Assembly: GCA_903824855.1 (NCBI GenBank) | Contig: CAIJYI010000043.1 | Span: 177 to 64,176 of the forward strand | Source of the DNA: an uncultured bacterium | GTDB taxonomy: Bacteria; Patescibacteriota; Minisyncoccia; Phycocordibacterales; CAIJYI01 | DNA: 64,000 bases | Direction of reading: 5' to 3' | Shown: positions 32,647 through 53,464 of the stretch, one piece after another | Numbering within the stretch: the stretch's first letter is position 1 | Layout of the letters: every line of letters begins with the position of its first letter | Position numbers and translations under genes: made by a program | Notes under the pieces: model-generated | Told to the model about the DNA's origin: nothing | What the model saw: only the letters and a program-made list of their open reading frames with translations | Databases searched by the model: none

Positions 32647-32731
32647 GCCGTTTCGTTCTTTTCCCGGGTTATGAGTGCGATCACTCATCCTTCGGCGCCG
32701 CACGCCGAAAAAGGGAAAAGAACGAAACGGC
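32647..32731. repeat. element with a perfect 19-bp terminal inverted repeat (copy A, 85 bp), upstream of the rplC promoter
   Basis: gccgtttcgttcttttccc ... gggaaaagaacgaaacggc; internal conserved hairpin ttcggcg-ccgca-cgccgaa. Confidence 0.65.
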
Positions 32732-32878
32732 GAACGTTCGTTTGACGTTCTCAGGTATTTCTGCTAGGATTAAAGCCAAACCTACGAAGGGCTTTTTTTT
32801 ATTGCCACCGAACAGGCTAATTGGGACCAATGGCGACAGAACGTATTAAACGGCGTTCCGCGAAAGTCCCCAGAATTT

Positions 32879-33502
32879 ATGAGATTTATACTCGGAGAAA
32901 AGCTTGCGATGACGCAAATCTTCACGGAAGATGGCGTTGTGCACCCGGTTACCGCTGTCCAATCAGGGCAAATGACCGTTGTTCAAGTGAAGAACAAAAA
33001 GAAAGACGGTTATGACGCTATCCAATACGGATTCGGCGATCGTAACGAAAAAAATATTAATAAAGCGCAGATCGGCCACGCAAAAACGCTTGGCAATTTT
33101 CGGTATTACCGCGAAGAAAGACTGCCTGATGGAACAGAAGCGACCGTAACTACGGGCGATACTGTTAATCCTGAAGTTTTCAATGTTGGAGACATCGTTG
33201 AAGTTTCGGCCATTTCAAAAGGAAAAGGTTTCCAGGGTGTTGTTAAACGCCATAAATTTGAAGGAGGTCGCCGATCACACGGACAAAAACATTCCGAACG
33301 TGAGGCTGGTTCCATTGGAGGAGCTGCACACGGAGGAGGTAGAGTTCGACTAGGAAAAAGAATGCCGGGAAGAATGGGTTACGACAGAGTCACCGTCAAA
33401 AACTTAAAAATCGTTGCGGTTGATACCGATACGAATCAGATTTTCGTATCAGGCGCCATTCCGGGTCGAAGAGGAACACTTATTGAAATTAAAGGCCGAT
33501 AA
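32879..33502 (+). CDS. rplC: 50S ribosomal protein L3
   Basis: ILGEKLAMTQIFTEDG... canonical L3. Confidence 0.9.
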   Translation: MRFILGEKLAMTQIFTEDGVVHPVTAVQSGQMTVVQVKNKKKDGYDAIQYGFGDRNEKNINKAQIGHAKTLGNFRYYREERLPDGTEATVTTGDTVNPEVFNVGDIVEVSAISKGKGFQGVVKRHKFEGGRRSHGQKHSEREAGSIGGAAHGGGRVRLGKRMPGRMGYDRVTVKNLKIVAVDTDTNQIFVSGAIPGRRGTLIEIKGR

Positions 33503-33508
33503 AATTCC

Positions 33509-34171
33509 ATGGAAGCAAAAATATACAATCAAACAGGAAAAAGCGTTGGAACGATTGCATTGCCAACCGAAGTTTTCGGAGCACACTGGAACGGAGACTT
33601 GGTTCACCAGGTTTTGGTTTCTGAAGGCGGAAACGCACGCAACAACATCGCCCATGTTAAAGATCGAAGCGATGTAAGAGGAGGAGGAAAGAAACCGTGG
33701 AAACAGAAAGGTACCGGACGCGCTAGACATGGTTCTACTCGTTCACCAATCTGGGTCGGCGGAGGTGTTACCCACGGACCAACCAACGAAAAAGATTACA
33801 CCAGAAAAATCAACAAAAAAATGAAAGCTGCGGCTATTTACGCCATTCTTTCGCAGAAGTTGAAAAATGGAGAAATAATTTTTGTTGACGAAATCAAACC
33901 GACTGAAATTAAAACAAAAGAAGCGAAAGTAATCCTTTCATCTTTGGCAACAATTTCAGGATGCGAAGATATTGCCACAAAAAGAAAGAATGCCGCTTTC
34001 ATCGCGCTTGGAAAGAAAGACAAAGATGCGGAAAGAGTATTCAGCAACATCAAGAGCGTTTTTATTGGAGAATGGCGCAACATTACGCCTTCCGAACTTT
34101 TGAAATACAAATATATTGTTGTATCTCATCCGGAAGAAAGCGTGAAATTTGTCGCTTCAAAAATAAAATAA
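33509..34171 (+). CDS. rplD: 50S ribosomal protein L4
   Basis: GGGKKPWKQKGTGRARHGS... Confidence 0.9.
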   Translation: MEAKIYNQTGKSVGTIALPTEVFGAHWNGDLVHQVLVSEGGNARNNIAHVKDRSDVRGGGKKPWKQKGTGRARHGSTRSPIWVGGGVTHGPTNEKDYTRKINKKMKAAAIYAILSQKLKNGEIIFVDEIKPTEIKTKEAKVILSSLATISGCEDIATKRKNAAFIALGKKDKDAERVFSNIKSVFIGEWRNITPSELLKYKYIVVSHPEESVKFVASKIK

Positions 34172-34172
34172 T

Positions 34173-34472
34173 ATGAAAGCAAAAATTTTCAAAAATAAAA
34201 ATCTTGCCGAAATTCTGAAACGCCCTCGCGTGACCGAAAAAGCAGCTATTCTCGTCGAGAATAATGCCTATACATTCGAAGTCGCTCCAACCGCTACCAA
34301 ACCGGAAGTGAAAGCTGCGATTATCGCTATGTACAAAGTCACCCCGATTCAGATTAACATGACAGCAGGAACCAGTAAAAATATTACGAGGCGCGGTCGA
34401 GCCGGCGTAAAAACAACCAACAAAAAGGCGGTTGTTCATCTTAAGAAAGGTGATAAAATAGAATTCATCTAA
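34173..34472 (+). CDS. rplW: 50S ribosomal protein L23
   Basis: ILKRPRVTEKA...YTFEV... Confidence 0.9.
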   Translation: MKAKIFKNKNLAEILKRPRVTEKAAILVENNAYTFEVAPTATKPEVKAAIIAMYKVTPIQINMTAGTSKNITRRGRAGVKTTNKKAVVHLKKGDKIEFI

Positions 34473-34477
34473 AAAAC

Positions 34478-35320
34478 ATGAAATCACACAGACCTACAAC
34501 CCCATCAATGAGACACACGAAGGTTGTTTCTTACCGAAATGTTCTCACTTCGGCGAAACCTCACAAAGCGCTCACTATGGGACGCAAACGCGATGTCGGA
34601 CGCAATGCCGACGGACGCATTTCTGTTCGCCACAAAGGAGGTGGACACAAACGCCTTTATCGCGAAATAGACTTCAAATACAATAAAAGAGACATCCCGG
34701 CGAAAATCGAGACTATCGAATATGACCCGAACCGTTCCTCTTTCATTTCTCTCGTTTGCTACAAAGACGGAGAAAGACGCTATGTTCTCACAGCGAAAAC
34801 AATGAAAGTCGGCGACATGATGGTTGTCGGAGAGAACGCCGAAATCAAAGCCGGCAACAGACTCCCGATGAAAAACATTCCTCAAGGTACTTTCGTTTAC
34901 AATGTAGAATTGAAACCGGAAGGAGGTGCAAAAATCGTACGATCAGGCGGAAGCTATGCTGAAATCGTTGCGAAAGATGCTCCGTACGTTCACTTGAAAA
35001 TGCCGTCAGGAGAAATTCACAAAATTCACGAGAATGCATGGGCTTGCGTCGGAGTTGTTTCCAACGACGAACACAAACTCCGCAATATCGGAAAAGCCGG
35101 ACGCTCAAGATGGCTCGGTATTAGACCGACCGTTCGCGGAACAGCAATGAATCCTGTCGATCATCCACACGGTGGAGGAGAAGGAAAACAGGGAAGAGGA
35201 CTTCGCAGAGCCAAAACCGCTTGGGGAAAACCATCCGGAAAAGGACAGAAGACCAGAGCCCCGAAAAAGTATTCCAACGTCTTCATTATTTCAAGAAGAA
35301 AGACAAGAAAGAAAAAATAA
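34478..35320 (+). CDS. rplB: 50S ribosomal protein L2
   Basis: ...VRSGGSYAEIVAKD...HPHGGGEGK... Confidence 0.95.
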   Translation: MKSHRPTTPSMRHTKVVSYRNVLTSAKPHKALTMGRKRDVGRNADGRISVRHKGGGHKRLYREIDFKYNKRDIPAKIETIEYDPNRSSFISLVCYKDGERRYVLTAKTMKVGDMMVVGENAEIKAGNRLPMKNIPQGTFVYNVELKPEGGAKIVRSGGSYAEIVAKDAPYVHLKMPSGEIHKIHENAWACVGVVSNDEHKLRNIGKAGRSRWLGIRPTVRGTAMNPVDHPHGGGEGKQGRGLRRAKTAWGKPSGKGQKTRAPKKYSNVFIISRRKTRKKK

Positions 35321-35456
35321 TATTTTCAAAAAAAATACCGTCAGCAATGGCGGTATTTTTGTGGTAATTTCTTACACGATTTATTATTGACAAGAACTCT
35401 TTATTAACGTATTCTTTTTGCAGTTATGTTCACGGTGAAAATTTGGAGGCTATAAA

Positions 35457-35969
35457 ATGGCAAATATATCTACCGCTTTAAAATGTTTTTATGCGACTCT
35501 CGAAGGAGAGGGAGTAAAGGATAATGAAATTCTCTTTGGTTCAAAAGTCAGATTAGTTTTTCATATTCCGAAACTATCTTTTTCGGATGAGTCCGTTCAC
35601 CTTGGTTTTACAATTATGCCATTCGGTTTACAATTTCCGGAAAGAAATCCGACTTTGTGGCATCAAGACTTGAATATCCCATGTGAGGAAAGCGAAGTCG
35701 TTTTTTCCTTTATCGTTCCAACAGAAAAAAAATGGAAAAAAGATATCACCCCCGGTTTTTCATTTACTTTTGATGTAAACGGTTTATCTGTTTTTTCTCA
35801 ATTTTTGAAAGTACGATTTGTTTCGTCTTTTAATGATCGAAAGAGACGTGAGAAATTTGCATTCCATTTCATTGATTTAGAAAAGGGTATTGAATCATCA
35901 GTGAAGCAGATTAGAAAATTTGAGGAACAAGAAAAAAATTGGCAAAAAGAATTTGCGTGGGAAAAATAA
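35457..35969 (+). CDS. hypothetical protein inserted between rplB and rpsS
   Basis: ORF with a terminator (aaactgaaacggcactaccgtttcagttt + T-run) downstream. Confidence 0.45.
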   Translation: MANISTALKCFYATLEGEGVKDNEILFGSKVRLVFHIPKLSFSDESVHLGFTIMPFGLQFPERNPTLWHQDLNIPCEESEVVFSFIVPTEKKWKKDITPGFSFTFDVNGLSVFSQFLKVRFVSSFNDRKRREKFAFHFIDLEKGIESSVKQIRKFEEQEKNWQKEFAWEK

Positions 35970-36135
35970 ATAATTTCCGAAATGACTACAAACTGAAACG
36001 GCACTACCGTTTCAGTTTTTTTATTTATGTTTCTCTTTTGGACCTTTGTTCGACGAACACCACTTGCTTTTTCTCATCATGTATGGTTAAATACATTCGG
36101 AAACATTTGAAATTATATAGACCGAAGGAGGTTCT

Positions 36136-37305
36136 ATGTCTGACCAAGAACAATTAAGAACAACACCGCTCACCGAGTGGCACTTGGAGAATGGTGCAAA
36201 AATGGCGGAATTTGCCGGATATTCGATGCCGATTAATTATCCGTCAGGCGCGCTTAAAGAAACAAAAGCAGTCCGTGAAAATGCCGGAATGTTTGATATT
36301 TCTCACATGAGGCCCATTGTTGTGAAGGGAACGCTTGCCCGAGCTTTTCTTAACTTTATTGATACCAGAGACTTGGCATCAATGGAACCGGGAGACGCGA
36401 AGTACGGTATCGTTTGTCTAAACAACGGTGAGGCTATCGACGATATTATCGTTTATGAATCGCCATTTTCTACAAAACCGAGTGAAACTTTTATCGTTAT
36501 CTCTAATGCGAGCAACGGTACAAGAGTGTATGAACATTTGCGCCAAGTCAAAAGTGATTATTCTCTTTTGAATTCGCAGGTACAAATTGAAGACGGTCTT
36601 GATCAATTCGGATTTATTTCTTTACAAGGTCCGAAGGCAAAATCTATCTTACAAAAAGCGATTGGTTCTGAAAATCAAATTCCGAAAAAATATTATTCAT
36701 GCCAATACGGCATGGTGTTCGGATATTTTGCACTGCTTGCAAAAACAGGATACACAGGAGAAGAAGGGTACGAAATATTGTGTCCCAAATTAGACACCAT
36801 AGAAATCTGGACCCATTTTCTTGAAGTCGGAGAAGAAGACGGATTAGTTGCGTGCGGTCTTGCCTCTCGTGATACACTTCGTCTTGAAGCAGGTATGCCT
36901 TTATTCGGTCATGAAATGGATAAAAACCATAATCCGATAATAGCCGGCTTAGGAAAATATGTTGACTTCAACAAGGAAGGATACTTCCTCGGGAAAGGCA
37001 TACTTGAAAAAGTTCGTGATGGTGCATCCAAAAAACCTAATGAATATTTTAATGCCTTCATTATGGAAAAAGGAAGAGTTCCAAGACATGGCAATGTCAT
37101 TTACCTTATGCTTATGGGCGAAACTCGTCCCGTAGGAAAATTGACGAGCGCAGGATTTTCTCCAACGCTCCAAAAAAATATCGCTATGGGATATACGGAC
37201 CACTCGTTTCTTCCGGGCACCACTGTCCTCATTGATATCGGCGGACAAATGTATCCGGCGACAATAACAAAACTTCCTTTCTATAAAAGAGAAAAGAAAC
37301 AATAA
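36136..37305 (+). CDS. gcvT: glycine-cleavage T-protein family aminomethyltransferase
   Basis: GcvT-like N-terminal folate-binding region (…ENAGMFDISHM…) and C-terminal barrel; GGAGG RBS. Confidence 0.75.
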   Translation: MSDQEQLRTTPLTEWHLENGAKMAEFAGYSMPINYPSGALKETKAVRENAGMFDISHMRPIVVKGTLARAFLNFIDTRDLASMEPGDAKYGIVCLNNGEAIDDIIVYESPFSTKPSETFIVISNASNGTRVYEHLRQVKSDYSLLNSQVQIEDGLDQFGFISLQGPKAKSILQKAIGSENQIPKKYYSCQYGMVFGYFALLAKTGYTGEEGYEILCPKLDTIEIWTHFLEVGEEDGLVACGLASRDTLRLEAGMPLFGHEMDKNHNPIIAGLGKYVDFNKEGYFLGKGILEKVRDGASKKPNEYFNAFIMEKGRVPRHGNVIYLMLMGETRPVGKLTSAGFSPTLQKNIAMGYTDHSFLPGTTVLIDIGGQMYPATITKLPFYKREKKQ

Positions 37306-37508
37306 AGTTACAACCGCGATAGCATAGTCTTTCGCGGTTTTTTTATTACAACATCTATTCCATTTATTGTCCCAGAGGTTGAACCTCTTCAATTTTTTTG
37401 TTGACAAAGGGGTGACGGGTACGAGTAATCGGTTTTTGGTGTTGATTCGCTTTGACTATCTGGTATCATGGGTATGGTTTTGATTTTTGAAACAAAAAGG
37501 AGGATATC

Positions 37509-38672: not shown

Positions 38673-38683
38673 TATTTATTTAT

Positions 38684-38722
38684 AGCACACCCCCGGGGCC
38701 ATTATGGCCCCGGTTTTTTTAT
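38684..38722 (+). terminator. terminator
   Basis: ccccggggccattatggccccgg + T-run. Confidence 0.6.
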
Positions 38723-38793
38723 GCATGAAGTCCCTCGATTTTAAGGTTTTTTTGCTCGGTTCTTAGTCGTTTTTCTATTCTCTCCATGTTTAC

Positions 38794-38822: not shown

Positions 38823-38852
38823 ACAACGTAAAGCTCTGATTAAGAGGAGCTT

Positions 38853-39218
38853 ATGTTTTTGACTAAAATCATGACCAGATCACTAAAAAAAGGTCCATAC
38901 GTGGACGAAAAGTTGTTAAAGAAAGTTGAAGGGAAACGACCGATAGAAACGGGCGTCATTAAAACGTGGGCACGAGCCAGTCAGATCTCACCAGAAATGT
39001 TGGGTTTCACTTTCGGCGTTCACAATGGACGTGCACATCTTGAAGTTTTAGTTACCGAAGATATGGTCGGACATCGTCTCGGCGAATTCTCACCTACAAG
39101 AAAGTTTATTAGACACGGAGGAAAAATGCAGAAAGAAATCGAACAGAAAAAGAAAGACTCCGAAATAGCGGCAGCAAAAGCGGCGAAAACCGCAACCGCG
39201 GAACCGAAAAAGAAATAA
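38853..39218 (+). CDS. rpsS: 30S ribosomal protein S19 with a Lys/Ala-rich C-terminal tail
   Basis: [16 protein letters not shown]...[13 protein letters not shown]; alternative ATG at 38871. Confidence 0.9.
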
Positions 39219-39227
39219 TTAAAGAGC

Positions 39228-39306
39228 TTTTAGGTTTTAGGGGGTAGGTTTTAGACGAAACGGTTTCCGTTTCCCTAACCACTAACCCCTAAGACCTAAC
39301 ACCTAA
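39228..39306. repeat. TTAGG/CCTAA-type palindromic element (copy 2, rpsS-rplV spacer)
   Basis: ttttaggttttagggggtaggttttagacgaaacggtttccgtttccctaaccactaacccctaagacctaacacctaaa. Confidence 0.7.
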
Positions 39307-39311
39307 ATATC

Positions 39312-39761
39312 ATGGAAACAGGAACAGCAAGTCTTAAGAATTATCGACAGTCGCCACGAAAGGTGCGACTCCTTGCCAATTTGGTTAAAGGAAAAGAAGC
39401 GAAAGAGGCCATTACCCTCCTTCGTTTTTCGCAGAAACGAGCTTCAGATCCTTTGGAGAAGCTTATTGAAAGCGCCCTTGCCAATGTCAGGAATGCCGGA
39501 GCCGGAGCAAAAGATTTGTTTCGCGTGGTCAATATGACGGTTGATAAAGGAGTAGTTATGAAAAGAAGCATGCCTCGCGCGAGAGGAAGAGCTTTCCCGA
39601 TTAAGAAACGAACCAGCCATGTCACAGTTACGATAGCAAGAATGGAAGCACCTGTCGCAAAAGCAAAAATCGAAGCAAAAAAAGTTGAGACCAAAGAAGT
39701 AAAGAAAGCAACTGTTGCGAAAAAACCGGTAGCAAAGAAGAAAATCACAACAAAAGAATAA
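39312..39761 (+). CDS. rplV: 50S ribosomal protein L22 with a Lys-rich C-terminal tail
   Basis: PRKVRLLANLVKGKEAKEAITLLRFS... Confidence 0.9.
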   Translation: METGTASLKNYRQSPRKVRLLANLVKGKEAKEAITLLRFSQKRASDPLEKLIESALANVRNAGAGAKDLFRVVNMTVDKGVVMKRSMPRARGRAFPIKKRTSHVTVTIARMEAPVAKAKIEAKKVETKEVKKATVAKKPVAKKKITTKE

Positions 39762-39795
39762 ACCATTTATACTAAAAATACTTAATACATAATTT

Positions 39796-40461
39796 ATGTC
39801 GCACACCGTACATCCATATTCACATCGCTTGGGGATACTCAGAGATTGGAAATCTCGATGGTTCGCCGCATCCGGAAAATATCAGGAATTTTTACGTTCT
39901 GATGTTCTTTTGCGCGAATATCTTGAAAAACGCCTTCATGGACAATACGTAAGCGCTATCGATTTCGAGAGAAACGACAACACTTTAAAGATTATCATCA
40001 AAACCGGTCGACCGGGAATGATTATCGGAAGAAGCGGAGAAGGACACACCAAACTCAAGAACGACGTCCTCGCTTTTGCCAAGAAAAACAAAATCTCTCT
40101 TTCTGAAAACTTAAAGATAGATATTGAAGAAGTTCGTTATCCTGAAACAGATGCCGCGATTGTCGGACAAATGATTGCCGAAGGTTTGGAAAAACGTATG
40201 CCATTCCGCCGTGTTCTCAAACAGACCGTTGAAAAAGTTATGGCAAGCAAATCAGCACAAGGAGCAAAAATTGCCATTTCCGGACGCTTAGGAGGAGCTG
40301 AAATGAGCCGATCCGAAGAAATCAAACGAGGAAACATTCCTCTTCAGACGTTCCGCGCTGACATCGATTTCGCAAAAGTAAGAGCTAACCTTCCATACGG
40401 AGTTATCGGTATCAAGGTTTGGATCTACAAAGGAGAAGTATTTGAACCGAAAACAAAGTAA
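39796..40461 (+). CDS. rpsC: 30S ribosomal protein S3
   Basis: KH domain GRPGMIIGRSGEG... Confidence 0.95.
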   Translation: MSHTVHPYSHRLGILRDWKSRWFAASGKYQEFLRSDVLLREYLEKRLHGQYVSAIDFERNDNTLKIIIKTGRPGMIIGRSGEGHTKLKNDVLAFAKKNKISLSENLKIDIEEVRYPETDAAIVGQMIAEGLEKRMPFRRVLKQTVEKVMASKSAQGAKIAISGRLGGAEMSRSEEIKRGNIPLQTFRADIDFAKVRANLPYGVIGIKVWIYKGEVFEPKTK

Positions 40462-40498
40462 CATTAAACGAAAGTATTCATCAAATTAAAGAAAGAAT

Positions 40499-40921
40499 AT
40501 GCTAGCCTTCCCAAGAAAAGTTAAACATCGCAAATGGCAGACCAATCGCCATAATCCAAAGAAACCGCACAATGAAACGCGTGGTATTACTGTTGCGTTT
40601 GGATCATTCGGTTTGAAAGCTCAGAGCATGGGACGTATTCGTTCCAATCAGATTGAAGCTGCAAGAAAGACATTAACAAGAACAATCTCAAAAACAGGAA
40701 AAGTTTGGATTCGTATTTTCACAGACAGACCGGTTACACAAAAAGCCGCTGAAGTGGGAATGGGAAAAGGTAAAGGAGATCCGGTTGGATATTGCTTTGA
40801 GGTATTACCTGGACGCATCCTTTTTGAAGTTGACGGAGTTACCGAAGCAATTGCTAAAGAAGCTCTCAGAAAAGCCGGCGCAAAACTTCCGATTAAAACG
40901 AAAGTCGTTGCCCACATCTAA
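40499..40921 (+). CDS. rplP: 50S ribosomal protein L16
   Basis: PRKVKHRK...GKGDPVGYCFEVLPGRILFE. Confidence 0.95.
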   Translation: MLAFPRKVKHRKWQTNRHNPKKPHNETRGITVAFGSFGLKAQSMGRIRSNQIEAARKTLTRTISKTGKVWIRIFTDRPVTQKAAEVGMGKGKGDPVGYCFEVLPGRILFEVDGVTEAIAKEALRKAGAKLPIKTKVVAHI

Positions 40922-41381: not shown

Positions 41382-41444
41382 ACGAGTATTGTTATATGGT
41401 ATACGGCATAAGTGATACTATTCCCATATACATACAATAAAAAT

Positions 41445-41816
41445 ATGATTCAACCACAAACAATAGTTAAAATAGTTGACAATACCGGAGGAAAAATCGG
41501 AAGAGTCTTCAAAGTACTCGGAGGTTCAAAGAAACGATACGCTGAAATAGGCGAACTCGTTGTTTTGGCTGTCCAAGTTGCTGAACCAAGAAAAGGAGTC
41601 AAACGTAAAGACGTTTTGCAGGCCGTTGTTGTTCGACAGACAAAACCACTTCGCAGAAAAGACGGATCGTATGTTCGTTTCGATGAGAATGCGGTTGTCA
41701 TTTTAGAAAAAGGGAAAAAGGAACCTAAAGGCGGTCGTGTTTTTGGTCCAATCCCACGCGAGATTGCTGATCTCGGATATCAGAAAATTGCTTCATTGGC
41801 ACCGGAAATCGTTTAA
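41445..41816 (+). CDS. rplN: 50S ribosomal protein L14
   Basis: MIQPQTIVKIVDNTGGK...; start at the internal ATG. Confidence 0.95.
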   Translation: MIQPQTIVKIVDNTGGKIGRVFKVLGGSKKRYAEIGELVVLAVQVAEPRKGVKRKDVLQAVVVRQTKPLRRKDGSYVRFDENAVVILEKGKKEPKGGRVFGPIPREIADLGYQKIASLAPEIV

Positions 41817-41830
41817 ATAACAATACATAT

Positions 41831-42136
41831 ATGAACGTAAAGAAAGACGACATGGTTATCGTGCTCACGGGCAAAGACAAAGGAAAGAAGGGGAAAGTTC
41901 TCCAAGTTTTTCGTGAGAATGACAGAGTTACCGTTGAAGGCGTTGCCATCAAGAAAAAAGCTCTTAAATCAAAAGCTAAAGGGAAACCGGGTCAGATTAT
42001 TGAGAAGGCTTCACCTATTCATGTTTCAAACGTATCATTACTTGACCCAAAAAGCGGAAAAGCAACTCGCGTTGGTTCAAAGATGGTAGGAGACAAGAAA
42101 ATCAGAATTAGTAAAAAGAGCGGAGTCGAAGTTTAA
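41831..42136 (+). CDS. rplX: 50S ribosomal protein L24
   Basis: KOW motif KKDDMVIVLTGKDKGKKGKV. Confidence 0.9.
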   Translation: MNVKKDDMVIVLTGKDKGKKGKVLQVFRENDRVTVEGVAIKKKALKSKAKGKPGQIIEKASPIHVSNVSLLDPKSGKATRVGSKMVGDKKIRISKKSGVEV

Positions 42137-42200
42137 TTTAGTATAGTATCTGGTATTAAGTATGTAATTATACTACCTCCAGTTACGCCATAAAAATATC

Positions 42201-42749
42201 ATGGAAAATATTAAGACAAAAGAAAAGAAAGCATACGAAGCAATGAAGGCTGAGTTTGGATATAAAAACCCGATGCAAGCGCCTCGCCTCGTTAAGGTTG
42301 TTGTCAGTAGCGGAACGGGAAAATCAAAAGACCCAAAAAGAAATGACCTCGTCGTTGATCGCCTCACTAAAATCACCGGACAAAAACCGTCTTTGCGCGG
42401 AGCTAAAAAATCTATCGCATCATTTAAAGTAAGACAAGGAGATCCTGTCGGAGTTACGATTACTATGCGAAAAGGAAGAATGTACGGATTCTTGGATAAG
42501 CTCATCGATATCGCTATTCCCCGAATGAAAGACTTCCGCGGACTCGACGCAAAAGCTATCGACGAAATCGGAAACTACACCATGGGACTTCGCGAACACA
42601 CTATTTTCACAGAAGCTACCAATGAAGACTTGAAAGACGTTTTCGGACTTGCTATCACTGTCGTCACTACAGCAAAGAGCGCCAAAGAAGCAAAAGCATT
42701 CCTCGACGTCCTCGGATTTCCTTTCAAGAAACCTGAAGCTGCAAAATAA
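42201..42749 (+). CDS. rplE: 50S ribosomal protein L5
   Basis: ...NPMQAPRLVKVVV...GMDI-like C-terminus. Confidence 0.95.
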   Translation: MENIKTKEKKAYEAMKAEFGYKNPMQAPRLVKVVVSSGTGKSKDPKRNDLVVDRLTKITGQKPSLRGAKKSIASFKVRQGDPVGVTITMRKGRMYGFLDKLIDIAIPRMKDFRGLDAKAIDEIGNYTMGLREHTIFTEATNEDLKDVFGLAITVVTTAKSAKEAKAFLDVLGFPFKKPEAAK

Positions 42750-43873: not shown

Positions 43874-44182
43874 ATGAATACAAAAACAAAAATTATTCCG
43901 CTTGCCGATCGTGTATTGGTCAAGCCGGGAAATCCAAAAGATTCCATGAAAACAAAATCAGGGATTATTATTCCGGATACTGCAAGCAAGGACATACCTG
44001 AAATGGGTGAGGTTCTCGCCGTCGGAGAAGGAAAAATGCTTGATAACGGAGAGATTATTCCCGTCAAAGTGAAAGTGGGTGACCTCGTTCTTTTTTCAAA
44101 ATACGGACCGGATGAAGTGAAAATTGATGATGAAAAATATTTTATTATCAGAGAAGAGGCAATATTGGCAGTAGTGAAATAA
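43874..44182 (+). CDS. groES: co-chaperonin GroES
   Basis: IIPLADRVLVK...GEVLAVGEG... Confidence 0.9.
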   Translation: MNTKTKIIPLADRVLVKPGNPKDSMKTKSGIIIPDTASKDIPEMGEVLAVGEGKMLDNGEIIPVKVKVGDLVLFSKYGPDEVKIDDEKYFIIREEAILAVVK

Positions 44183-44218
44183 TATCCAATCGCAAATTTA
44201 TCAGTAATTATACAAATA

Positions 44219-44320
44219 AGGTTTTAGGGATTAGGTTATAGGTTTTAGACGAAACGATTCTTGTTTTCTAAATCCTAACACCTAACCCCTAACCCCTAAT
44301 CCCTAAAACCTAAAACCTAA
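44219..44320. repeat. TTAGG/CCTAA-type palindromic element (copy 3, groES-groEL spacer)
   Basis: ggttttagggattaggttataggttttagacgaaacgattcttgttttctaaatcctaacacctaacccctaacccctaatccctaaaacctaaaacctaa. Confidence 0.75.
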
Positions 44321-44325
44321 TCAAT

Positions 44326-45975
44326 ATGTCAAAACAAATTATTTATGATGAGAAAGCGAGAGCGCTATTAAAAACTGGCGTAGACAAAGTTGCCGACGCA
44401 GTGAAGGTAACACTCGGACCCCGCGGAAAGAATGTTATTTTGGATAGAACTTACGGCGCTCCGATGATTACTAATGATGGCGTAACTATCGCAAAAGAAA
44501 TTACTCTCTCCGACAAAGTTGAGAATATGGGAGCGGAAATGGTGAAAGAAGTTGCATCAAAAACAAATGAACTTGCAGGAGACGGTACCACAACCGCGGT
44601 TGTACTCACACAAGCGTTGGTCACGGAAGGAATGAAGAAAACTACCATGGGTGTAAATGCTATGGGTGTTCGTCTTGGAATTGAAGCAGCAGCCGCAGCT
44701 ATCGTTGAGGCACTCAAAAGTGCAGCGAAACCGATTAAAAATCATTCAGAAATTAAACAAGTTGCAACCATCTCCGCTGAGTCTGAAGAAATTGGTACTA
44801 TTATTGCTGATACTATTGATAAGGTGGGAAAAGACGGCGTTGTTACGGTAGAGGAGTCTCAGACTGTCGGTATTGAATCGGAAGTAGTGAAAGGTTTGCA
44901 GTTTGATAAGGGGTACGTTTCTCCTTATATGATTACGAATCCCGAGCGAATGGAAGCAGACTATTCTGACGTTGCTTTGCTGATTACCGACAAGAAAATT
45001 TCTTCTATAAAAGAGATACTTCCTCTTCTTGAAAAACTTGCACAGACGGGGAAGAAAGATTTGGTGATTGTTGCCGATGATGTTGATGGGGAAGCGTTGA
45101 CGACTTTTATTTTAAATAAACTTCGGGGAACATTTAATATCCTTGCCGTGAAGGCTCCCGGTTTTGGCGATCGTAAAAAAGAAATGCTCGCCGATCTTGC
45201 TGTTTTAACAGGAGGAAAAGTCGTAACGGACGATGTTGGACTCAAGCTGGAAACTGCTGAACTCGATGTTCTTGGACACGCAGGAAAAGTTATCGCCACA
45301 AAAGATGCGACCACCATTGTCGGAGGAAAGGGAAAGAAAGCCGATATTGATTCACGTGTTGCTCAGATTAGAAAACAAGTTGAGATGACCGATTCTAAGT
45401 ATGACAAAGAGAAAATGATTGAAAGATTAGCGAAACTTTCGGGCGGTGTTGCTGTCATTAAAGTCGGAGCCGCGACGGAAACCGAAATGAAATATTTGAA
45501 ATTAAAAATCGAAGACGCAGTAAATGCTACCAAAGCAGCAATCGATGAAGGAGTCGTTCCCGGAGGTGGAGTCGCGCTGGTGAAGGCCGCAGCAAAAGTT
45601 GCCTCAAAGGAAGTAAAAGCACCGCTTAAAAACTTTGAAGCTGAATATAAAGTTGGATGGGATATCGTTCTACGTGCAGTAGAAGCGCCACTTCGCCAGA
45701 TTGCTATTAACGCCGGAAAAGACGGATCGGTTATCGTAGAGAAAGTCCGTAACGCAAAAGGAAACGGTGGATACGACGCGAAGCAAGATGAAATGATTGC
45801 CGATATGCTCATCGCAGGAATTATCGACCCGGTGAAAGTGACTCGAAGTGGACTCCAAAATGCAGCATCTGCCGCCGCAATTCTTCTCACTACGGAAGTC
45901 GCTATCGTAGACGAACCAAAAGAAGAAAAGGAAATGCCGCAAATGGGAGGAGGAATGCCGGGAATGGGGTATTAG
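44326..45975 (+). CDS. groL: chaperonin GroEL
   Basis: full-length Cpn60, GGGMPGMGY C-terminus. Confidence 0.97.
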   Translation: MSKQIIYDEKARALLKTGVDKVADAVKVTLGPRGKNVILDRTYGAPMITNDGVTIAKEITLSDKVENMGAEMVKEVASKTNELAGDGTTTAVVLTQALVTEGMKKTTMGVNAMGVRLGIEAAAAAIVEALKSAAKPIKNHSEIKQVATISAESEEIGTIIADTIDKVGKDGVVTVEESQTVGIESEVVKGLQFDKGYVSPYMITNPERMEADYSDVALLITDKKISSIKEILPLLEKLAQTGKKDLVIVADDVDGEALTTFILNKLRGTFNILAVKAPGFGDRKKEMLADLAVLTGGKVVTDDVGLKLETAELDVLGHAGKVIATKDATTIVGGKGKKADIDSRVAQIRKQVEMTDSKYDKEKMIERLAKLSGGVAVIKVGAATETEMKYLKLKIEDAVNATKAAIDEGVVPGGGVALVKAAAKVASKEVKAPLKNFEAEYKVGWDIVLRAVEAPLRQIAINAGKDGSVIVEKVRNAKGNGGYDAKQDEMIADMLIAGIIDPVKVTRSGLQNAASAAAILLTTEVAIVDEPKEEKEMPQMGGGMPGMGY

Positions 45976-47426: not shown

Positions 47427-47485
47427 TTCATATATAGCTGTGTTATAATAGTCGTGTAATCTTAAAAGATAATTACTTTATTTCT

Positions 47486-48049: not shown

Positions 48050-48090
48050 AAAAAAGAAATCTTAAATTATTCCGTTCTTTATAAAAAAAT

Positions 48091-48948
48091 ATGGATACGC
48101 AACAAACAAACCATCCCGAAAAACCAATTGGTGTTTTTCGTCGAAGTGTAACTTTTGCGAAAAAGAGTATTTCACTCCTCGTTCAAGACTATCGAGTGAT
48201 GTATATTCCTCTTTTGTTTGGGATTATTACTTCGCTTTTTATGGCGGGTTTCTTGTTGTTCTATATTTTTTCCAACATTAATAATGGAAAAATATCATCC
48301 GGGACCATCCTTTTTGTTTGGTTCATGGTGGTTTTCTTTTCGACATCAGCGAGGATTGCCGTCACTCTGTCACTCAGGCCTCGCCTCCTCGGTAGTTCTA
48401 TCTCTTTGAAAGAGTCTTTTATAAAAATGATGAAAAAGACGGATTTTATTTTCGGATGGTCTTTTGTTTCATCGGCAGTCGGGATGCTTTTGGTTGCGTT
48501 TCCTTTTGATAGCTATTCTCTTTTTACCTCTATGATCCTTTCCGTTTATTGGATGTTTGGGACATATTTTATTATCCCTTCAATCGTTGAAGAGGAAATC
48601 TCACTTGCTTCCGCTTTTTCAAATTCAGTGGAAGCGCTAAAAAGATCGTGGAAAGAAATAATCGTTGTCAACTTCGCATTCAGATTGATAGTAGTTCCTG
48701 TTTTCCTTTTGTTTTTGTATCTCATTGCGGTTTTATTTTATTCTCTTCCTGCAGCCCCTCTTGCTCTCGAGATACTTATCTTTATCATCACAGTAGTAAT
48801 ACTTCTTTTGATGGTCACGCTCATGGTCTTTTCAATGCTTTTTCGTACATCGCTCGATTTGGTTCTTTATACTTTGAATCGTAAAGAAGAAGGCGGTCAT
48901 ATCGCAGAAATAATTCTCAAAAAACCGCGTAAAACAAAACTTCTATAA
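48091..48948 (+). CDS. hypothetical polytopic membrane protein
   Basis: about 6 predicted TM helices; located between lemA and htpX. Confidence 0.45.
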   Translation: MDTQQTNHPEKPIGVFRRSVTFAKKSISLLVQDYRVMYIPLLFGIITSLFMAGFLLFYIFSNINNGKISSGTILFVWFMVVFFSTSARIAVTLSLRPRLLGSSISLKESFIKMMKKTDFIFGWSFVSSAVGMLLVAFPFDSYSLFTSMILSVYWMFGTYFIIPSIVEEEISLASAFSNSVEALKRSWKEIIVVNFAFRLIVVPVFLLFLYLIAVLFYSLPAAPLALEILIFIITVVILLLMVTLMVFSMLFRTSLDLVLYTLNRKEEGGHIAEIILKKPRKTKLL

Positions 48949-49029
48949 TTTAACTATTAATGAGTGTGTTTCAAGGAAGGGAATCAGAGGACTCTGTACT
49001 TCTTTTTGTAACTTTGTATAATAGATTCT

Positions 49030-49923
49030 ATGGCTACTTTATATACTCTTCAAAACGTTAATACGAGGAAAACGTGGTTTCTAATGACTACATTTTTTAT
49101 AGTTATTATACTTCTCGGATGGGCGGTGAGTCTTTATTTTCAAAATCCTGGGATCCTCTATATCTTCTTTTTTTTCAGTATGATTATGAACATCGGAAGC
49201 TATTGGTTCTCCGATAAAATCGTTCTCTCAATGTCCGGCGCGCACGAGATCTCACATGACACTCATCATGATCTATGGAATGTTGTAGAAAATCTTTGTA
49301 TCACCGCGGGTCTTCCGATGCCGAAGGTATATGTTATGGACGATCCCGCACCGAATGCTTTTGCAACAGGTCGCGATAAAAATCATTCTGCCGTAGCCGT
49401 CACAACCGGTTTGCTTGCGATGATGAATCGGAATGAGCTTGAAGGAGTTATTTCTCACGAACTTTCTCATATCGGAAATAAAGATATTCTCCTCCAAACA
49501 GTGGTAGTTGTTTTAGTTGGTTTTATTACACTTCTGGCGGACTTCTTCATTCGTTCAACTTTCTGGAGCGGGGGCAGAGATAATGATGATAGAGGAGGTA
49601 CTATTGCTCTTATTATCGGTATTGTACTTTCCATTCTTGCTCCGTTATTTGCCCAGCTTATCCAGCTTGCCATTTCGCGAAAAAGAGAATTTCTCGCAGA
49701 TGCTTCAGGCGCGCTTCTTACCCGTTATCCGGAAGGGCTCGCTACCGCCTTAGAAAAAATATCAAGTTATCAGGGAGGAATGAAAACGGCCAATCGTGCT
49801 ACGGCACATCTTTTTATCGCAAATCCTTTTGGTCCCGCAGGTTTTAAAGGAAAGGCCTCCACACTTTTTATGACCCATCCGCCGGTTGAACAAAGAGTCA
49901 AGGCTCTTCGTGGTATGGCATAG
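49030..49923 (+). CDS. htpX: zinc metalloprotease HtpX (M48)
   Basis: GVISHELSHIGNKD HExxH motif, TM helices. Confidence 0.85.
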   Translation: MATLYTLQNVNTRKTWFLMTTFFIVIILLGWAVSLYFQNPGILYIFFFFSMIMNIGSYWFSDKIVLSMSGAHEISHDTHHDLWNVVENLCITAGLPMPKVYVMDDPAPNAFATGRDKNHSAVAVTTGLLAMMNRNELEGVISHELSHIGNKDILLQTVVVVLVGFITLLADFFIRSTFWSGGRDNDDRGGTIALIIGIVLSILAPLFAQLIQLAISRKREFLADASGALLTRYPEGLATALEKISSYQGGMKTANRATAHLFIANPFGPAGFKGKASTLFMTHPPVEQRVKALRGMA

Positions 49924-50010
49924 AATACCGAGTTTTCTCACCTCTAAACTTTTTCATTTGTTATGCACAAGATTTATTGTGCGAGCTTCTTTATCGCGAT
50001 ATAATATACA

Positions 50011-50589
50011 ATGATGCCAAGAAATAAAAAAAGAGGATTTACTTTGCTCGAAATGATCGTCACTCTTTCTGTCTTCATGATTATGACGACGATAATGATA
50101 TCGAGCAACCGCAACACGACAAAGACTGTTGTTTTGAATACCCTCGCGAATCAGGTGATTTCGGTGATACGCCAATCGGAATCCTACGCCCTTACCAAGC
50201 CCGCTTTATCCATAGGGAATTATCCGCCCTACGGAGTTTATTTTAGTACGGGATCCCCTAGCTCTTTTATTCTTTTTAAGGATACTAATAAAGACCACTT
50301 ATACACAGAGGGAGAGAGTCTCCAAAATCTTACTTTTCAACCCGGTTTTACCATTGCGAAACTCTGCGTAAACATGAAGAAGAATAATAAGACTCCCACA
50401 ACATGCACAAGTGTTACTAACATTGATGTTTCCTTCACACGGCCTTATCCGGAGCCGACTATTACCACCACAACATCTACCGTGGGTGAAATTCCTTTTA
50501 CTGACGTAGAGATAATTCTTTCATCGGGTGCGGGTAATATTCAAAAAACAATTGTTGTCTGGGTTACGGGGCAACTGGCTATTGAATAA
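50011..50589 (+). CDS. prepilin-type N-terminal cleavage/methylation domain protein (type IV pilin or pseudopilin)
   Basis: KRGFTLLEMIVTLSVFMI class III signal. Confidence 0.7.
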   Translation: MMPRNKKRGFTLLEMIVTLSVFMIMTTIMISSNRNTTKTVVLNTLANQVISVIRQSESYALTKPALSIGNYPPYGVYFSTGSPSSFILFKDTNKDHLYTEGESLQNLTFQPGFTIAKLCVNMKKNNKTPTTCTSVTNIDVSFTRPYPEPTITTTTSTVGEIPFTDVEIILSSGAGNIQKTIVVWVTGQLAIE

Positions 50590-50604
50590 ATTATGTTTTA
50601 AAAA

Positions 50605-51267
50605 TTGAGAATGAAAGGCGATAAAAAAATGCATCAGCTTAAAAATAATAGAAAAATATTAAATAAAGGATTCACTCTTGTTGAATTGCTTGTTTCCATT
50701 GCTATTTTCAGTATGGTATTTGTCTCAGCGAGTGGTGCTTTCGTATCGGTTCTTGATGCCTATCAAAAAATTACTAAAACGCGCGTGAGTGTTGATAATC
50801 TCACGAATGCGCTTGAAAGTTTGGTGAGAGAAGCAAAGACCGGAACAAACTATCACTGCGGGTCAACCCTTCCTCTAACCACACCATTGGATTGCGCTAG
50901 TGGTGATACTTATTTTGCTTTTGTTAATACCAATGTTCCGAGAATTTTGAGCGGAGGTTCTCAAACGCCTTCTATCGTTTATAAATTTGTTGCTTGCCCG
51001 AGTGCCTTCCCTTATTGCGGAAGAATACAGCGATCTGATGATGGCGGGGTTAATTTTTTTCCCGTGACGGTTGCACCGCCTGACCTTATGATTACTGACC
51101 TTAAATTTATCGCCATAGGATCGACTCCTTTTTCAGATGCAACTTTGAATGTTGTTCAGCCACAGGTCACGATAGTTATAAGAGGATACGTTACTTTGAA
51201 AGGCGGTGTTACTGCTCCTTTTAGTGTACAAACGATGGCAAGTCAACGTAATCTTGATATCCTGTAA
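50605..51267 (+). CDS. type IV pilin-like protein
   Basis: NKGFTLVELLVSIAIFSMV prepilin N-terminus. Confidence 0.65.
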   Translation: MRMKGDKKMHQLKNNRKILNKGFTLVELLVSIAIFSMVFVSASGAFVSVLDAYQKITKTRVSVDNLTNALESLVREAKTGTNYHCGSTLPLTTPLDCASGDTYFAFVNTNVPRILSGGSQTPSIVYKFVACPSAFPYCGRIQRSDDGGVNFFPVTVAPPDLMITDLKFIAIGSTPFSDATLNVVQPQVTIVIRGYVTLKGGVTAPFSVQTMASQRNLDIL

Positions 51268-51271
51268 AAAA

Positions 51272-51871
51272 ATGAAAAAAAACATACCTATAAAAAATAA
51301 GGACGGTCTTTCCATAAAACGGGGAATTGCTTTTGGTGTAGGGGGTTTCGTTATCGTCGAAACGCTTGTTGCGGTCGCTCTGGTTTTGCTGGCTATTCCT
51401 GACGCTCTGCAGATGTCAACCAAAGGTATTTATCTTTCAACCTATTCGAAGAACCAAATGATTGCTACCTATCTCGCGCAGGAAGGGATTGAATATATCC
51501 GAGCCAGAAGAGATTATAATAGAATGCTTGTCTTAAAAGATGGTGTTGGTGCCGCCAATTGGGACGATGGATTTTCCGGCATGGCCGACGCAGTTCGTAT
51601 TGATCCGTCCCTTCCTTCTCCTATCGTCAATTGTTCGGGCTGTAATATCTATAGCAATCCGCCGAATGCGAGCTATCATCTTTATATAAGCTCAAATGGA
51701 TTTTACTCGCATACTTCAGCAGGAAATACCGCGACTCCATTTTATCGAGGTGTTTTTGTGGTGCCTTCCGGAACTAGCGAATATGTTATTACCTCTGTAG
51801 TTCGTTGGAATGCCGGTTTTGTCAGTAAAACAACTACCTTGAACGGTTATATTTCCAACTGGTATAAATAA
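51272..51871 (+). CDS. pilin-like protein (non-canonical prepilin N-terminus)
   Basis: GIAFGVGGFVIVETLVAVALVLLA; start at the internal ATG after the upstream stop. Confidence 0.45.
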   Translation: MKKNIPIKNKDGLSIKRGIAFGVGGFVIVETLVAVALVLLAIPDALQMSTKGIYLSTYSKNQMIATYLAQEGIEYIRARRDYNRMLVLKDGVGAANWDDGFSGMADAVRIDPSLPSPIVNCSGCNIYSNPPNASYHLYISSNGFYSHTSAGNTATPFYRGVFVVPSGTSEYVITSVVRWNAGFVSKTTTLNGYISNWYK

Positions 51872-51887
51872 ACAGAAAAAAACTTAT

Positions 51888-52454
51888 ATGTTCAAATTGT
51901 TTTTTCAAAAAAAATATAATGAGAAATTAATTTCATTGAAAACAGCTAAAATTCATAATAATGAAAGTGGTTTTTTTCTGCTTTATGCAATTATTTTGAC
52001 TTCAATAATGCTTATTATCGGAATGGGAATTCTTGATGTAACTTTGCAACAAATTGCTTATTCGGGAGTGGACAGAGAATCTGTGCGTGCGTTTTATGCG
52101 GCGGATGCCGGTATTGAATGCGGACTTAGTCTTGATTTTGCTCTCAATAAACTCAGTACAAGTACTCCGCCGGGAACGTACACTCCGGGTGGAAGTGAAA
52201 AGGTTTGTAATGCTTCATCTATAACTATCACCACCACAACTAATCCGCCTAAATTTACTTTTAATATGTGGCTCGACAAAGCATCAGCAAGCAACAAAAG
52301 CTGTGCCAGCGTGACGGTAAGCCGTGTTATCAATGCTGATGGAACGACGGGAACAACCACTATCTCATCTCTCGGCTATAATTCTGAATGCCCTCTGATT
52401 GGAGCCTCAACGCGAATCCCCGTAACTGAAAGAGGACTCATGTCGGTATATTAA
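51888..52454 (+). CDS. minor pilin-like or hypothetical protein
   Basis: N-terminal hydrophobic helix FFLLYAIILTSIMLIIGMGIL; Thr-rich. Confidence 0.4.
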   Translation: MFKLFFQKKYNEKLISLKTAKIHNNESGFFLLYAIILTSIMLIIGMGILDVTLQQIAYSGVDRESVRAFYAADAGIECGLSLDFALNKLSTSTPPGTYTPGGSEKVCNASSITITTTTNPPKFTFNMWLDKASASNKSCASVTVSRVINADGTTGTTTISSLGYNSECPLIGASTRIPVTERGLMSVY

Positions 52455-52532
52455 GGAATTTTTAATTAACGAAAAAATGCCCACAATGGGCATTTTTTAC
52501 AGATTGAAAAGAAAAAGGATTGATTCATTACT

Positions 52533-52979
52533 TTGACATTAGATAAAACAATTAATAATGTAAAAAAATATATGAAAGACGAAGAATTATATGATTCATT
52601 CACTAAAGAAGAAATGGAAGAACTTTCCGACGAAGCGAAAGAACGTTGGGGACATACAACTGCCTACAAAGAATCGGAGCAAAAAATGCGAAGAATGACC
52701 AAAGAGCAAATGGACGTGATTAAAAAAGAAGGCGACGATATACTGAAGAAAGGGGTATCTCTAATAGAGAAGAATATACACAGCAAAGAAGTTCAGGATT
52801 TAATTGCGGAACACTATAAACATCTTTCAAACTTCTATACTCCAAATACTGAAATGTATAAAGGGTTGGCGGAAATGTATATAGGCGATTCAAGATTTAG
52901 AGAACATTTTGAGAAGTACCATCCAAAACTTCCACAATTTATGCACGATGCAATGATTGCATTTGTTGAAAATAAATAA
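52533..52979 (+). CDS. standalone TipAS (antibiotic-recognition) domain protein
   Basis: the C-terminal domain of TipA/Mta-type regulators without the MerR HTH; ...YIGDSRFREHFEKYHP... Confidence 0.65.
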   Translation: MTLDKTINNVKKYMKDEELYDSFTKEEMEELSDEAKERWGHTTAYKESEQKMRRMTKEQMDVIKKEGDDILKKGVSLIEKNIHSKEVQDLIAEHYKHLSNFYTPNTEMYKGLAEMYIGDSRFREHFEKYHPKLPQFMHDAMIAFVENK

Positions 52980-53079
52980 TATTAAGAAAAAACACACGAC
53001 CAATTCGTGTGTTCATATTTAGCAGAATTGCCACTGATATACAAAAAAATGATACAACATATGTACCATTTTTTGATTT

Positions 53080-53167
53080 TGGCGGAGGGTATGAGATTCG
53101 AACTCATGAGAGGTTTCCCCCTACTCGCTTTCCAAGCGAGCGCACTCGACCACTATGCGAACCCTCC
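53080..53167 (-). tRNA. tRNA-Ser (anticodon GGA), class II with a long variable arm, CCA encoded
   Basis: minus strand: GGAGGGU-UC-...-CUCGC-UUGGAAA-GCGAG-var arm-AUGAG-UUCGAAU-CUCAU-ACCCUCC-G-CCA; TTGATT-16-TATAGT promoter upstream. Confidence 0.8.
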
Positions 53168-53281
53168 AAGGTTTGCAAATGTTTCTTTTACTATATCAGA
53201 AAGCAAAGAAAAATCAAAATTTTTTAGCGATCATCCATTCGCGCTATTGCGCCCGCTCGTGTCGTTTGCCATCTTTAATGA

Positions 53282-53464
53282 GCCGTTTCGTCCTTTTCCC
53301 GGGTTATGCGGTGCGCCCTCCTTACAGGAGCAGTACACCTTTTCAATATTTTGTTTCGCTCACCGGTCACAAAATATTAGAAGAAGGACTTGCGGAATGG
53401 GTCCCAACCCATTCCTCACCTATCCTTCGGCGCGCCGCCGAAAAAGGGAAAAGGACGAAACGGC
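53282..53464. repeat. element with a perfect 19-bp terminal inverted repeat (copy B, 183 bp), just upstream of the rplJ promoter
   Basis: gccgtttcgtccttttccc ... gggaaaaggacgaaacggc; shares gggttatg and ttcggcg-loop-cgccgaa-aaaaa with copy A; a compensatory t/c - a/g change keeps the pairing. Confidence 0.65.

Follow-up and report, generated by a model that had tools for sequence, protein, structure and literature searches.

The stretch of DNA analyzed here, a 64,000-nucleotide window (positions 177 to 64,176 of contig CAIJYI010000043.1, from an uncultured bacterium), carries two copies of a non-coding palindromic element, each of which lies immediately upstream of the promoter of a ribosomal-protein operon. 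Copy A precedes the genes for L3, L4, L23 and L2, and copy B those for L10 and L7/L12, as had been proposed in a first reading made from the letters alone (the sequence-only reading). The sequences of the two copies match that reading exactly, from 32647 to 32731 (A) and from 53282 to 53464 (B). The source is a lake-metagenome member of Candidatus Paceibacterota (Patescibacteria). The closest homologues are named Paceibacterota or Parcubacteria, and identical contigs, GCA_903923685.1 among them, are present in assemblies of ENA, NCBI and Logan.

Both copies are bounded by perfect 19-bp inverted termini. The pattern GCCGTTTCGTYCTTTTCCC was matched four times, at both arms of each copy, versus 0.04 matches expected from shuffled sequence. 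A single difference separates the stems of the two copies, T-A in A and C-G in B, and is compensated such that the 19 bp remain perfectly paired in both. Also common to A and B are the internal sequence GGGTTATG, a hairpin of the form TTCGGCG-loop-CGCCGAA and an A tract. Because the similarity extends beyond the termini, by 5 nucleotides on the right (GAACG) and by 3 to 4 on the left (TGA, which reads GYGA in other family members), the fuller coordinates listed in Table 1 are used for the complete elements, whereas the units between the termini measure 85 bp (A) and 183 bp (B).

Copy A is predicted to fold as a three-way junction consisting of a 19-bp stem (P1), two hairpins (P2 and P3) and an AAAA linker. 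Relative to shuffled controls, folding as RNA gave z = −7.6 (A) and −12.1 (B) and folding as DNA gave z = −9.5 (A) and −10.5 (B), with predicted RNA energies of −52 to −98 kcal/mol across the two elements. Pairs other than Watson-Crick are few, and the two strands therefore fold about equally well. In copy B, P1 and P3 are retained, and ∼115 nucleotides of additional hairpins make the copy ∼98 nucleotides longer. This extra sequence had been taken as a sign of a variable insertion point; instead, it stands in place of the apex of P2. The segment is a member of a second repeat family inserted at that apex, with homologues beside a tmRNA gene at ∼318–425 of locus L015 and upstream of rplC at ∼2860–2965 of locus L044 (alignment A3; loci in other genomes are designated by L numbers). 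Within this nested module, which ends in ...GGGTCCCNNCCCATTCCTCACC, the middle of the three hairpins differs in sequence with its pairing kept.

The promoter-like sites suggested earlier for rplC (TTGACG-17-TAGGAT) and rplJ (TTGACT-16-TAATAT) were confirmed by a promoter scan, and the elements do end just before the −35 boxes, which lie 10 bp (A) and 11 bp (B) past the end of P1. These boxes are native to their loci and not supplied by the element, because they are conserved in relatives that do not carry it. On neither strand did the scan call a promoter-like site upstream of copy A or B. Copy A lies 75 bp past an intrinsic terminator (32539–32564), and copy B lies between the divergent promoters of a tRNA-Ser gene (53217–53190, minus strand) and rplJ. 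The left flanks are usually rich in CGT, which occurs upstream of copies 2.9 times per 50 nucleotides versus 0.54 for the background. The open reading frames adjoining copy A (166 and 170 amino acids) have no family matches and are not HUH-like.

Table 1. Elements, promoters and neighbouring features of the window, followed by family members at other loci. Positions refer to the 64,000-nucleotide window.
Feature	Position	Strand	Remarks
Copy A, full element	32643..32736	+	flanks GTGA (32643–32646) and GAACG (32732–32736); 104.9 bits with covariance model R1
Copy A, P1 5′ arm GCCGTTTCGTTCTTTTCCC	32647..32665	+	perfect pairing with 32713–32731
Copy A, hairpin P2, GGG-TT-ATGAGTG-CGAT-CACTCAT-CCT	32666..32691	+	predicted folds; stem covaries in the family
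Copy A, hairpin P3, TCGGCG-CCGCA-CGCCGA	32692..32708	+	followed by unpaired AAAA (32709–32712); predicted folds, covariation
Copy A, P1 3′ arm GGGAAAAGAACGAAACGGC	32713..32731	+	match to terminus pattern
Copy B, full element	53278..53469	+	flanks ATGA and GAACG
Copy B, P1 5′ arm GCCGTTTCGTCCTTTTCCC	53282..53300	+	match to terminus pattern
Copy B, nested second module	53309..53425	+	three hairpins replacing the P2 apex; homologues in L015 and L044
Copy B, hairpin P3, TTCGGCG-CGC-CGCCGAA	53426..53442	+	sequence and predicted fold
Copy B, P1 3′ arm GGGAAAAGGACGAAACGGC	53446..53464	+	match to terminus pattern
rplC promoter-like site, TTGACG-17-TAGGAT	32742..32770	+	10 bp past P1; not part of the element
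rplJ promoter-like site, TTGACT-16-TAATAT	53476..53503	+	11 bp past P1; native to the locus
CGT-rich pyrimidine tract GTCGTCCGTTTG...CGTTCGTCGTTCC	32594..32632	+	left of copy A; similar tracts beside most family members
Inverted doublet (REPIN-like) of the RAYT-associated REP TCGCCGGTTCGGGGTTGTACCCCGAACCGAAACGTTTG	31905..32035	.	∼610 bp upstream of copy A
tuf-rpsJ	10691–12348		S10-spc fragment
rplC-D-W-B	32879–35320		S10-spc fragment
rpsS to rplP	38853–40921		S10-spc fragment
rplN-X-E	41412–42749		S10-spc fragment
rplJ-L	53627–54538		listed with the S10-spc fragments
L010			copy upstream of argS
L011, L013, L014, L015, L020/L022			copies upstream of the tuf promoter, several distinct lineages
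L024			copy upstream of tig; same sequence as L009
L025			tandem pair upstream of a small membrane-protein gene
L027			tandem pair abutting the 3′ end of a convergent gene, no promoter

The element family in Paceibacterota genomes

About ten further copies were found in other Candidatus Paceibacterota metagenome contigs. The scans comprised an exact-pattern search of GTDB representative genomes, a scan of JGI metagenomes and a covariance model (R1) built from nine distinct copies. Among the GTDB representatives a single locus matched, in a Paceibacterota metagenome-assembled genome (L009), where a full copy lies directly upstream of the trigger-factor (tig) promoter, with a 5′ half copy another 111 bp upstream of it. 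In the JGI metagenomes 18 loci matched, 10 of them real and 8 by chance. Full copies are present at L009/L024, L010, L011, L013, L014, L015, L022, L025 and L027 (metagenome scan and covariance model). All are intergenic, all share one fold, a three-way junction built of the 19-bp P1 and a pair of short hairpins, and the carriers found are Candidatus Paceibacterota contigs only. The covariance model recovers every distinct copy; it detected no third copy in the window and none in ∼260 kb around the ribosomal-protein and transposase loci of relatives. Searches of IMG/VR with two 16–17-nucleotide patterns gave only chance matches, which the covariance model rejected, and blastn against plasmid and phage collections gave none. 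An origin from a virus, plasmid or phage was rejected on the basis of these searches.

Besides full copies, the family includes tandem pairs (L025, L027) in which the copies are spaced 10–40 nucleotides apart, a 5′ half copy (L009), copies with a truncated 3′ arm and an internal deletion (L015). L015 also carries at least six perfect hairpins downstream of its tmRNA gene (200–510), several of which are capped by TGCG, or CGCA when read on the opposite strand, as is P2 of the element. About 130 nucleotides from the tandem elements of L027 there is a possible unannotated structured RNA gene (1–140, minus strand) with a long closing stem GTACGGCGGA...TCCGCCGTAC, promoter-like sequence and no Rfam match.

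Pairing is conserved throughout the family. In alignment A2, which was fitted to the structure and therefore favours it, pairing holds in 97.8% of cells, and both sides are changed in 14 of 37 pairs; the changes are nonetheless plain in the raw sequences. Compensatory changes occur in all three helices, at a level reached in none of 500 shuffles and far above that of slid-partner controls. Among copies, P2 takes the forms AGUG/CACU, AGGC/GCCU, GGGU/ACCC and GGAC/GUCC, and P3 varies from GGCG/CGCC to GGUG/CACC. In L025b the distal part of P1 is changed from CCTTTTCCC to CTCTTCTGC, with all four changes compensated. The sequence-only reading had taken the one difference between A and B as selection on pairing. 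Pairing is indeed kept across the family, but the T-A variant of the stem recurs in L027, so what separates A from B is a family polymorphism rather than a compensation that arose within this genome.

The flanks GYGA...GARC are also conserved and would extend the stem by a Y-R pair, which covaries, and by a tandem G·A. On the + strand G·U pairs outnumber C·A pairs, 12 cells versus 2, although 8 of the 12 lie at the junction and may be alignment effects. Folding energy was rejected as a guide to the strand, as copies differ in whether the top or the bottom strand is the more stable. The evidence for a choice of strand is weak. Note also that covariation does not separate RNA from DNA hairpins, because compensated stems of the same kind are seen in the repetitive extragenic palindromes (REPs) that flank genes for REP-associated tyrosine transposases (RAYTs) in this lineage.

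At orthologous sites the element is present in some relatives and missing from others. The region upstream of rplJ holds no element in L028, L030, L031 and L055 (L10 75–85% identical), and the region upstream of rplC holds none in L044, L046, L048 and L052 (L3 72–89% identical); absence from L052 and L055 was determined with the covariance model alone. Where read, the promoter and leader are conserved for rplJ in L028, L030 and L031 and for rplC in L044, L046 and L048. Upstream of tuf, the element is found in five lineages and is absent from the window, L046, L048 and L052. L011, whose EF-Tu is 94% identical, carries a copy at tuf, and the window does not.

The tuf site also carries different versions of the element. 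Between near-identical left flanks, L011 and L022 have a subtype with a 7-bp stem, and L013–L015 have a subtype with a 6-bp stem and CGCA loops. As these subtypes recur at other loci (L009 and L025a; L027), the covariation is ascribed to subfamilies that replace one another, and compensatory evolution in situ at tuf was rejected as its main source. Two subtypes at the same tuf locus indicate replacement or conversion.

In relatives, the promoters of rplJ, rplC and tuf share an upstream module (L028 ∼9880–9925; L046 ∼9840–9880; tuf of L015 and L022) that resembles an UP element and in which TATTCTTAAATC(W)TAAATC repeats come after a TTTTTCGTCCGT-like tract. In L015 and L022 the three-way junction lies between this module and the −35 box, and relatives have similar pyrimidine tracts and TAAATC repeats ahead of the same promoters with no element present. 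Shared flanks could guide recombination or mark a preferred target.

A proposed palindromic DNA repeat, weighed against host function and RNA

We read copies A and B as members of a low-copy family of non-coding, REP- or MITE-like palindromic repeats (MITE, miniature inverted-repeat transposable element) that act as DNA and not through a gene product, and our belief and doubt in this reading are evenly balanced. The family occurs in several genomes, where its hairpins are kept by compensated substitutions and its members have been gained, lost or replaced in orthologous spacers upstream of promoters. It has formed tandem and truncated copies, has hosted the nested insertion of a second family, and has subtypes that are shared between loci. 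Three options had been offered by the sequence-only reading, and that of a MITE-like element comes closest: the non-coding inverted repeats, the further copies, the pattern of presence and absence and the tandem, truncated and nested forms agree with it, whereas the target-site duplication and cognate transposase of such an element were not found.

Copies may have been spread or homogenized by mobilization of a single-stranded DNA hairpin through an HUH/Y1 enzyme of RAYT type acting in trans, a route we consider doubtful. Gene conversion or recombination, with the nearly invariant 19-bp arms serving as homology, is an alternative that we would likewise entertain only tentatively. A classical MITE moved by a DDE transposase is less likely. 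The position 10–18 bp before the −35 box would reflect either a target preference for DNA upstream of promoters or survival only where a compact genome is unharmed, and any effect on the promoters would be secondary. The cumulative GC skew climbs throughout the window, which suggests that the + strand has the sequence of the leading strand and would thus be the template of the lagging strand, although there are only two copies and their orientation is confounded with that of the genes. A lagging-strand template arrangement is known from the single-strand transposition of IS200/IS605 elements.

The lineage does possess RAYT genes. In relatives, Y1 transposase genes lie inside the broken S10 cluster; the protein of one scored 85.6 bits versus the NCBIfam cutoff of 80 for REP-associated tyrosine transposases, and proteins named Paceibacterota or Parcubacteria head the list of homologues. 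One REP family (consensus TCGCCGGTTCGGGGTTGTACCCCGAACCGAAACGTTTG), whose stems vary with compensation, lies on either side of the RAYT genes in both L044 and L050, and the RAYT gene of L046 is flanked by yet another hairpin. An inverted doublet of the former REP is present in the window (Table 1), and its right-hand REP overlaps the start of the 166-amino-acid open reading frame at 32030.

Several results weigh against a mobile repeat. The RAYT genes proved not to be flanked by the three-way junction: those of L044, L046 and L050 (a close homologue) carry other repeats, the REP family of L044 and L050 being clearly different from the element, and covariance model R1 found no match in these three loci. 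In tblastn searches with the L044 and L046 RAYT proteins, no homologue was found in the 64-kb window or in the element-carrying loci, and no transposase or autonomous insertion sequence bracketed by these termini is present in the window or the fetched loci. Target-site duplications, which the sequence-only reading had proposed to look for, are lacking; the flanks of 10 copies contain no variable direct repeat and share only an invariant GA...GA that belongs to GYGA/GARC. Copy number is low in the sequences covered, with two copies in these 64 kb, none in the ∼260 kb of relatives and one locus in the sole matching GTDB genome. Placement is regular: a promoter-like site begins 10–18 nucleotides past P1 in four of seven independent loci, versus 0.022 per random position, and the rplC, rplJ, tig and tuf loci each have the element in the same orientation, a regularity far beyond that expected of a selfish repeat. 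Lastly, species differ hardly at all in the arms and the unpaired junction nucleotides. Both the placement and this near-invariance fit a host function equally well. Readings based on host function and on RNA are therefore kept, because of the other REPs at RAYT genes, the lack of a transposase or duplication, the low copy number, the regular placement, the native −35 boxes and the CGT-rich left flanks.

The host might select the element as a cis-acting DNA module that tunes or insulates transcription from strong promoters of translation genes, either as a cruciform or single-strand hairpin extruded in negatively supercoiled DNA or through a protein bound to the inverted GTTTCGTCC / GGACGAAAC arms. 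We regard this as a possibility, with the greater part of our judgment against it. The regular, singly oriented placement just described is in its favour, as are the mostly translation-related genes downstream (for L3, L10, EF-Tu, trigger factor and ArgRS), the near-invariance of the arms, the GGGTTATG junction and the AAAA linker alongside covarying stems, and the retention of the element upstream of tuf in five lineages. Against it, close relatives hold the same promoters and leaders without the element, and the tuf and rpsS promoters of the window itself lack it. Copies differ by about one helical turn in how far they lie from the −35 box, a poor fit to a phased activator or UP site; the tandem copies of L027 adjoin no promoter; and the tandem, truncated and nested copies resemble the dynamics of a repeat. 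Outside the elements, the window shows no enrichment of the arm motif, and a short protein-binding box, TTTCGTCCGT or CGTTTCGTCC, was rejected since neither is enriched in the window beyond the elements. An operator specific to ribosomal-protein promoters, another of the three options, is too narrow: other ribosomal-protein promoters in the window do without the element, as do the rplJ and rplC promoters of relatives, and at loci in other genomes it stands before tuf, tig and argS. We consider it unlikely that the element is a branched DNA (or RNA) structure retained by the host and targeted or selected at a distance of one to two helical turns before the −35 boxes of highly expressed translation genes in the candidate phyla radiation (CPR). 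If this were true, it would be a structural promoter element without a described counterpart, for example a supercoiling-sensing cruciform, an insulator or a platform for binding a regulator.

That the copies encode a multi-copy small RNA, or a domain processed from read-through RNA, with a three-way junction on a long stem with a basal tandem G·A, seems rather improbable to us. Covariation in all three helices and the excess of G·U over C·A on the + strand, with the reservation given above for cells at the junction, are what such an RNA would display. The conserved flanks with their Y-R pair allow a tandem sheared G·A on the + strand only, and the expansion in copy B resembles the expansion of hairpin apices seen in structured RNAs. 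Countering these points, the stems consist almost wholly of Watson-Crick pairs, the top strand has no advantage over the bottom in folding, and the distribution among close relatives is patchy. The third option of the sequence-only reading, an RNA transcribed from its own promoter, was not borne out; neither copy is preceded by a consensus promoter or followed by a terminator. Copy A comes right after an intrinsic terminator, copy B sits in the spacer of divergent promoters, and the 10–40 nucleotides between tandem copies leave no room for signals of their own. When the window was scanned against Rfam 15 at gathering thresholds, as that reading had suggested, only tmRNA and tRNA-Ser were detected and the elements had no match; permissive scans of both elements at E values up to 10 gave chance hairpin matches far below gathering scores and no family match. 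A ribosomal-protein leader or other cis-regulatory 5′ leader RNA was rejected, as both copies lie upstream of the −35 boxes and the true leaders (32771–32878 and 53504–53626) are separate.

A transcription insulator or terminator that shields strong promoters from upstream read-through, for which the position between the end of an upstream gene and the next promoter and the very stable predicted hairpin would speak, is very improbable, given that no U tract follows the element on either strand (GAACG does), the terminator scan calls neither copy, the genome uses canonical U-tract terminators, including the one 75 bp upstream of copy A, and upstream of copy B there is no transcription in the same direction that could be stopped.

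Genomic surroundings and significance

The S10-spc ribosomal-protein cluster is fragmented in the window into at least five pieces (Table 1). Between the pieces (10691–54538) lie genes for ATP synthase, a UvrD/PD-(D/E)XK helicase, gcvT, groESL and pilins. In the relatives L044, L046 and L048 the gap between rpsJ and rplC is just 1–3 kb and contains RAYT or HicA-type insertions.

Several other structured sequences were noted near these genes. The rplC leader starts with a terminator-like hairpin, AAGCC...GGGCTTTTTTTT (∼32774–32803), and the rplJ leader ends with one (53595–53609) followed by a T run. Both leaders are conserved in relatives and have no Rfam match, and their conservation suggests attenuator-type autoregulation. 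The tuf 5′ leader of ∼190 nucleotides (10560–10690 in the window; also L011, L013, L015 and L022) shows conservation between species, with a long hairpin, CGGTCAGGGTTAAGTTGATC...CTTAACTTTGACCG, right before the start codon. In the spacer between groES (43874–44182) and groEL (44326–45975) there is a long imperfect inverted repeat (44216–44322) with 41-nucleotide arms that are 76% complementary, one bearing telomere-like TTTAGGG/TTAGG and the other CCCTAAA.

The genomes of Paceibacterota and other CPR bacteria are tiny and thought to be streamlined, and the present families bear on how such genomes are rearranged. The window and related contigs together show that a single lineage has at least three families of structured intergenic palindromes, namely the three-way-junction element, the RAYT-type REP and the nested module, and they cluster around breakpoints of the fragmented ribosomal-protein cluster. 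A full-text literature search combining Patescibacteria or CPR with palindromic-repeat or RAYT/REPIN terms returned no description of REP, REPIN or MITE-type repeats from these bacteria. The regular spacing of 10–18 bp from −35 boxes is a candidate for a targeting rule or a promoter function. For the discovery of RNA motifs there is a caution: compensated base changes alone are no proof of RNA.

Comparison with known repeat systems

Integron attC sites are likewise structured palindromes, of 60–140 nucleotides, that are read as folded single strands and conserve structure over sequence. The element, however, does not have R″/R′ cores (RYYYAAC...GTTRRRY), a cassette array or a nearby integrase, and it lies upstream of promoters instead of at the 3′ ends of cassettes. 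The palindrome-associated elements of the IS200/IS605 group (PATEs) resemble it in depending on hairpins and in making no target-site duplication, and a Y1 transposase could act on it. P2 and P3, with similar stems of 6–7 bp and CGCA/CGCC loops, are loosely like the left- and right-end hairpins of that group. Those ends do not have a long terminal inverted repeat, and their insertion takes place 3′ of a fixed tetra- or pentanucleotide, whereas the left flanks of the element vary (TA, CA, AA, GA).

Comparable MITE families are the Correia/NEMIS elements of Neisseria, and also RUP, BOX and ERIC. Correia/NEMIS elements match the present family in size (85–183 bp for copies A and B) and share with it perfect terminal inverted repeats, lack of coding capacity, length variants due to internal indels and frequent location near promoters. 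The element differs in that there is no duplication of TA or other sequence, no autonomous insertion sequence with matching ends was seen and the −35 boxes are native. Its internal hairpins are constrained in their pairing, which MITEs of DDE type do not need.

With the REP/REPIN-RAYT system the element has in common short, extragenic, non-coding palindromes whose hairpins are kept by compensated changes, tandem or clustered copies and no target-site duplication; RAYT genes occur in the lineage, and their REPs in both the lineage and the window. It is distinguished by a branched three-way junction with a perfect 19-bp outer stem, in place of a single imperfect hairpin or simple doublet, and, in the sequences scanned, by a very low copy number compared with the tens to hundreds per genome expected of REPs. 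REPs are typically found at the 3′ ends of genes and the element adjoins −35 boxes. Its 5′ flank is a conserved G(T/C)GA, which is preceded by a literal GTAG in L010 and L025 only (compare GT[AG]G of REPs), and it flanks none of the RAYT genes examined. Thus, although it fails a defining test of each (flanking of RAYT genes for the one and target-site duplication for the other), the element works most like REP/REPIN or MITE repeats.

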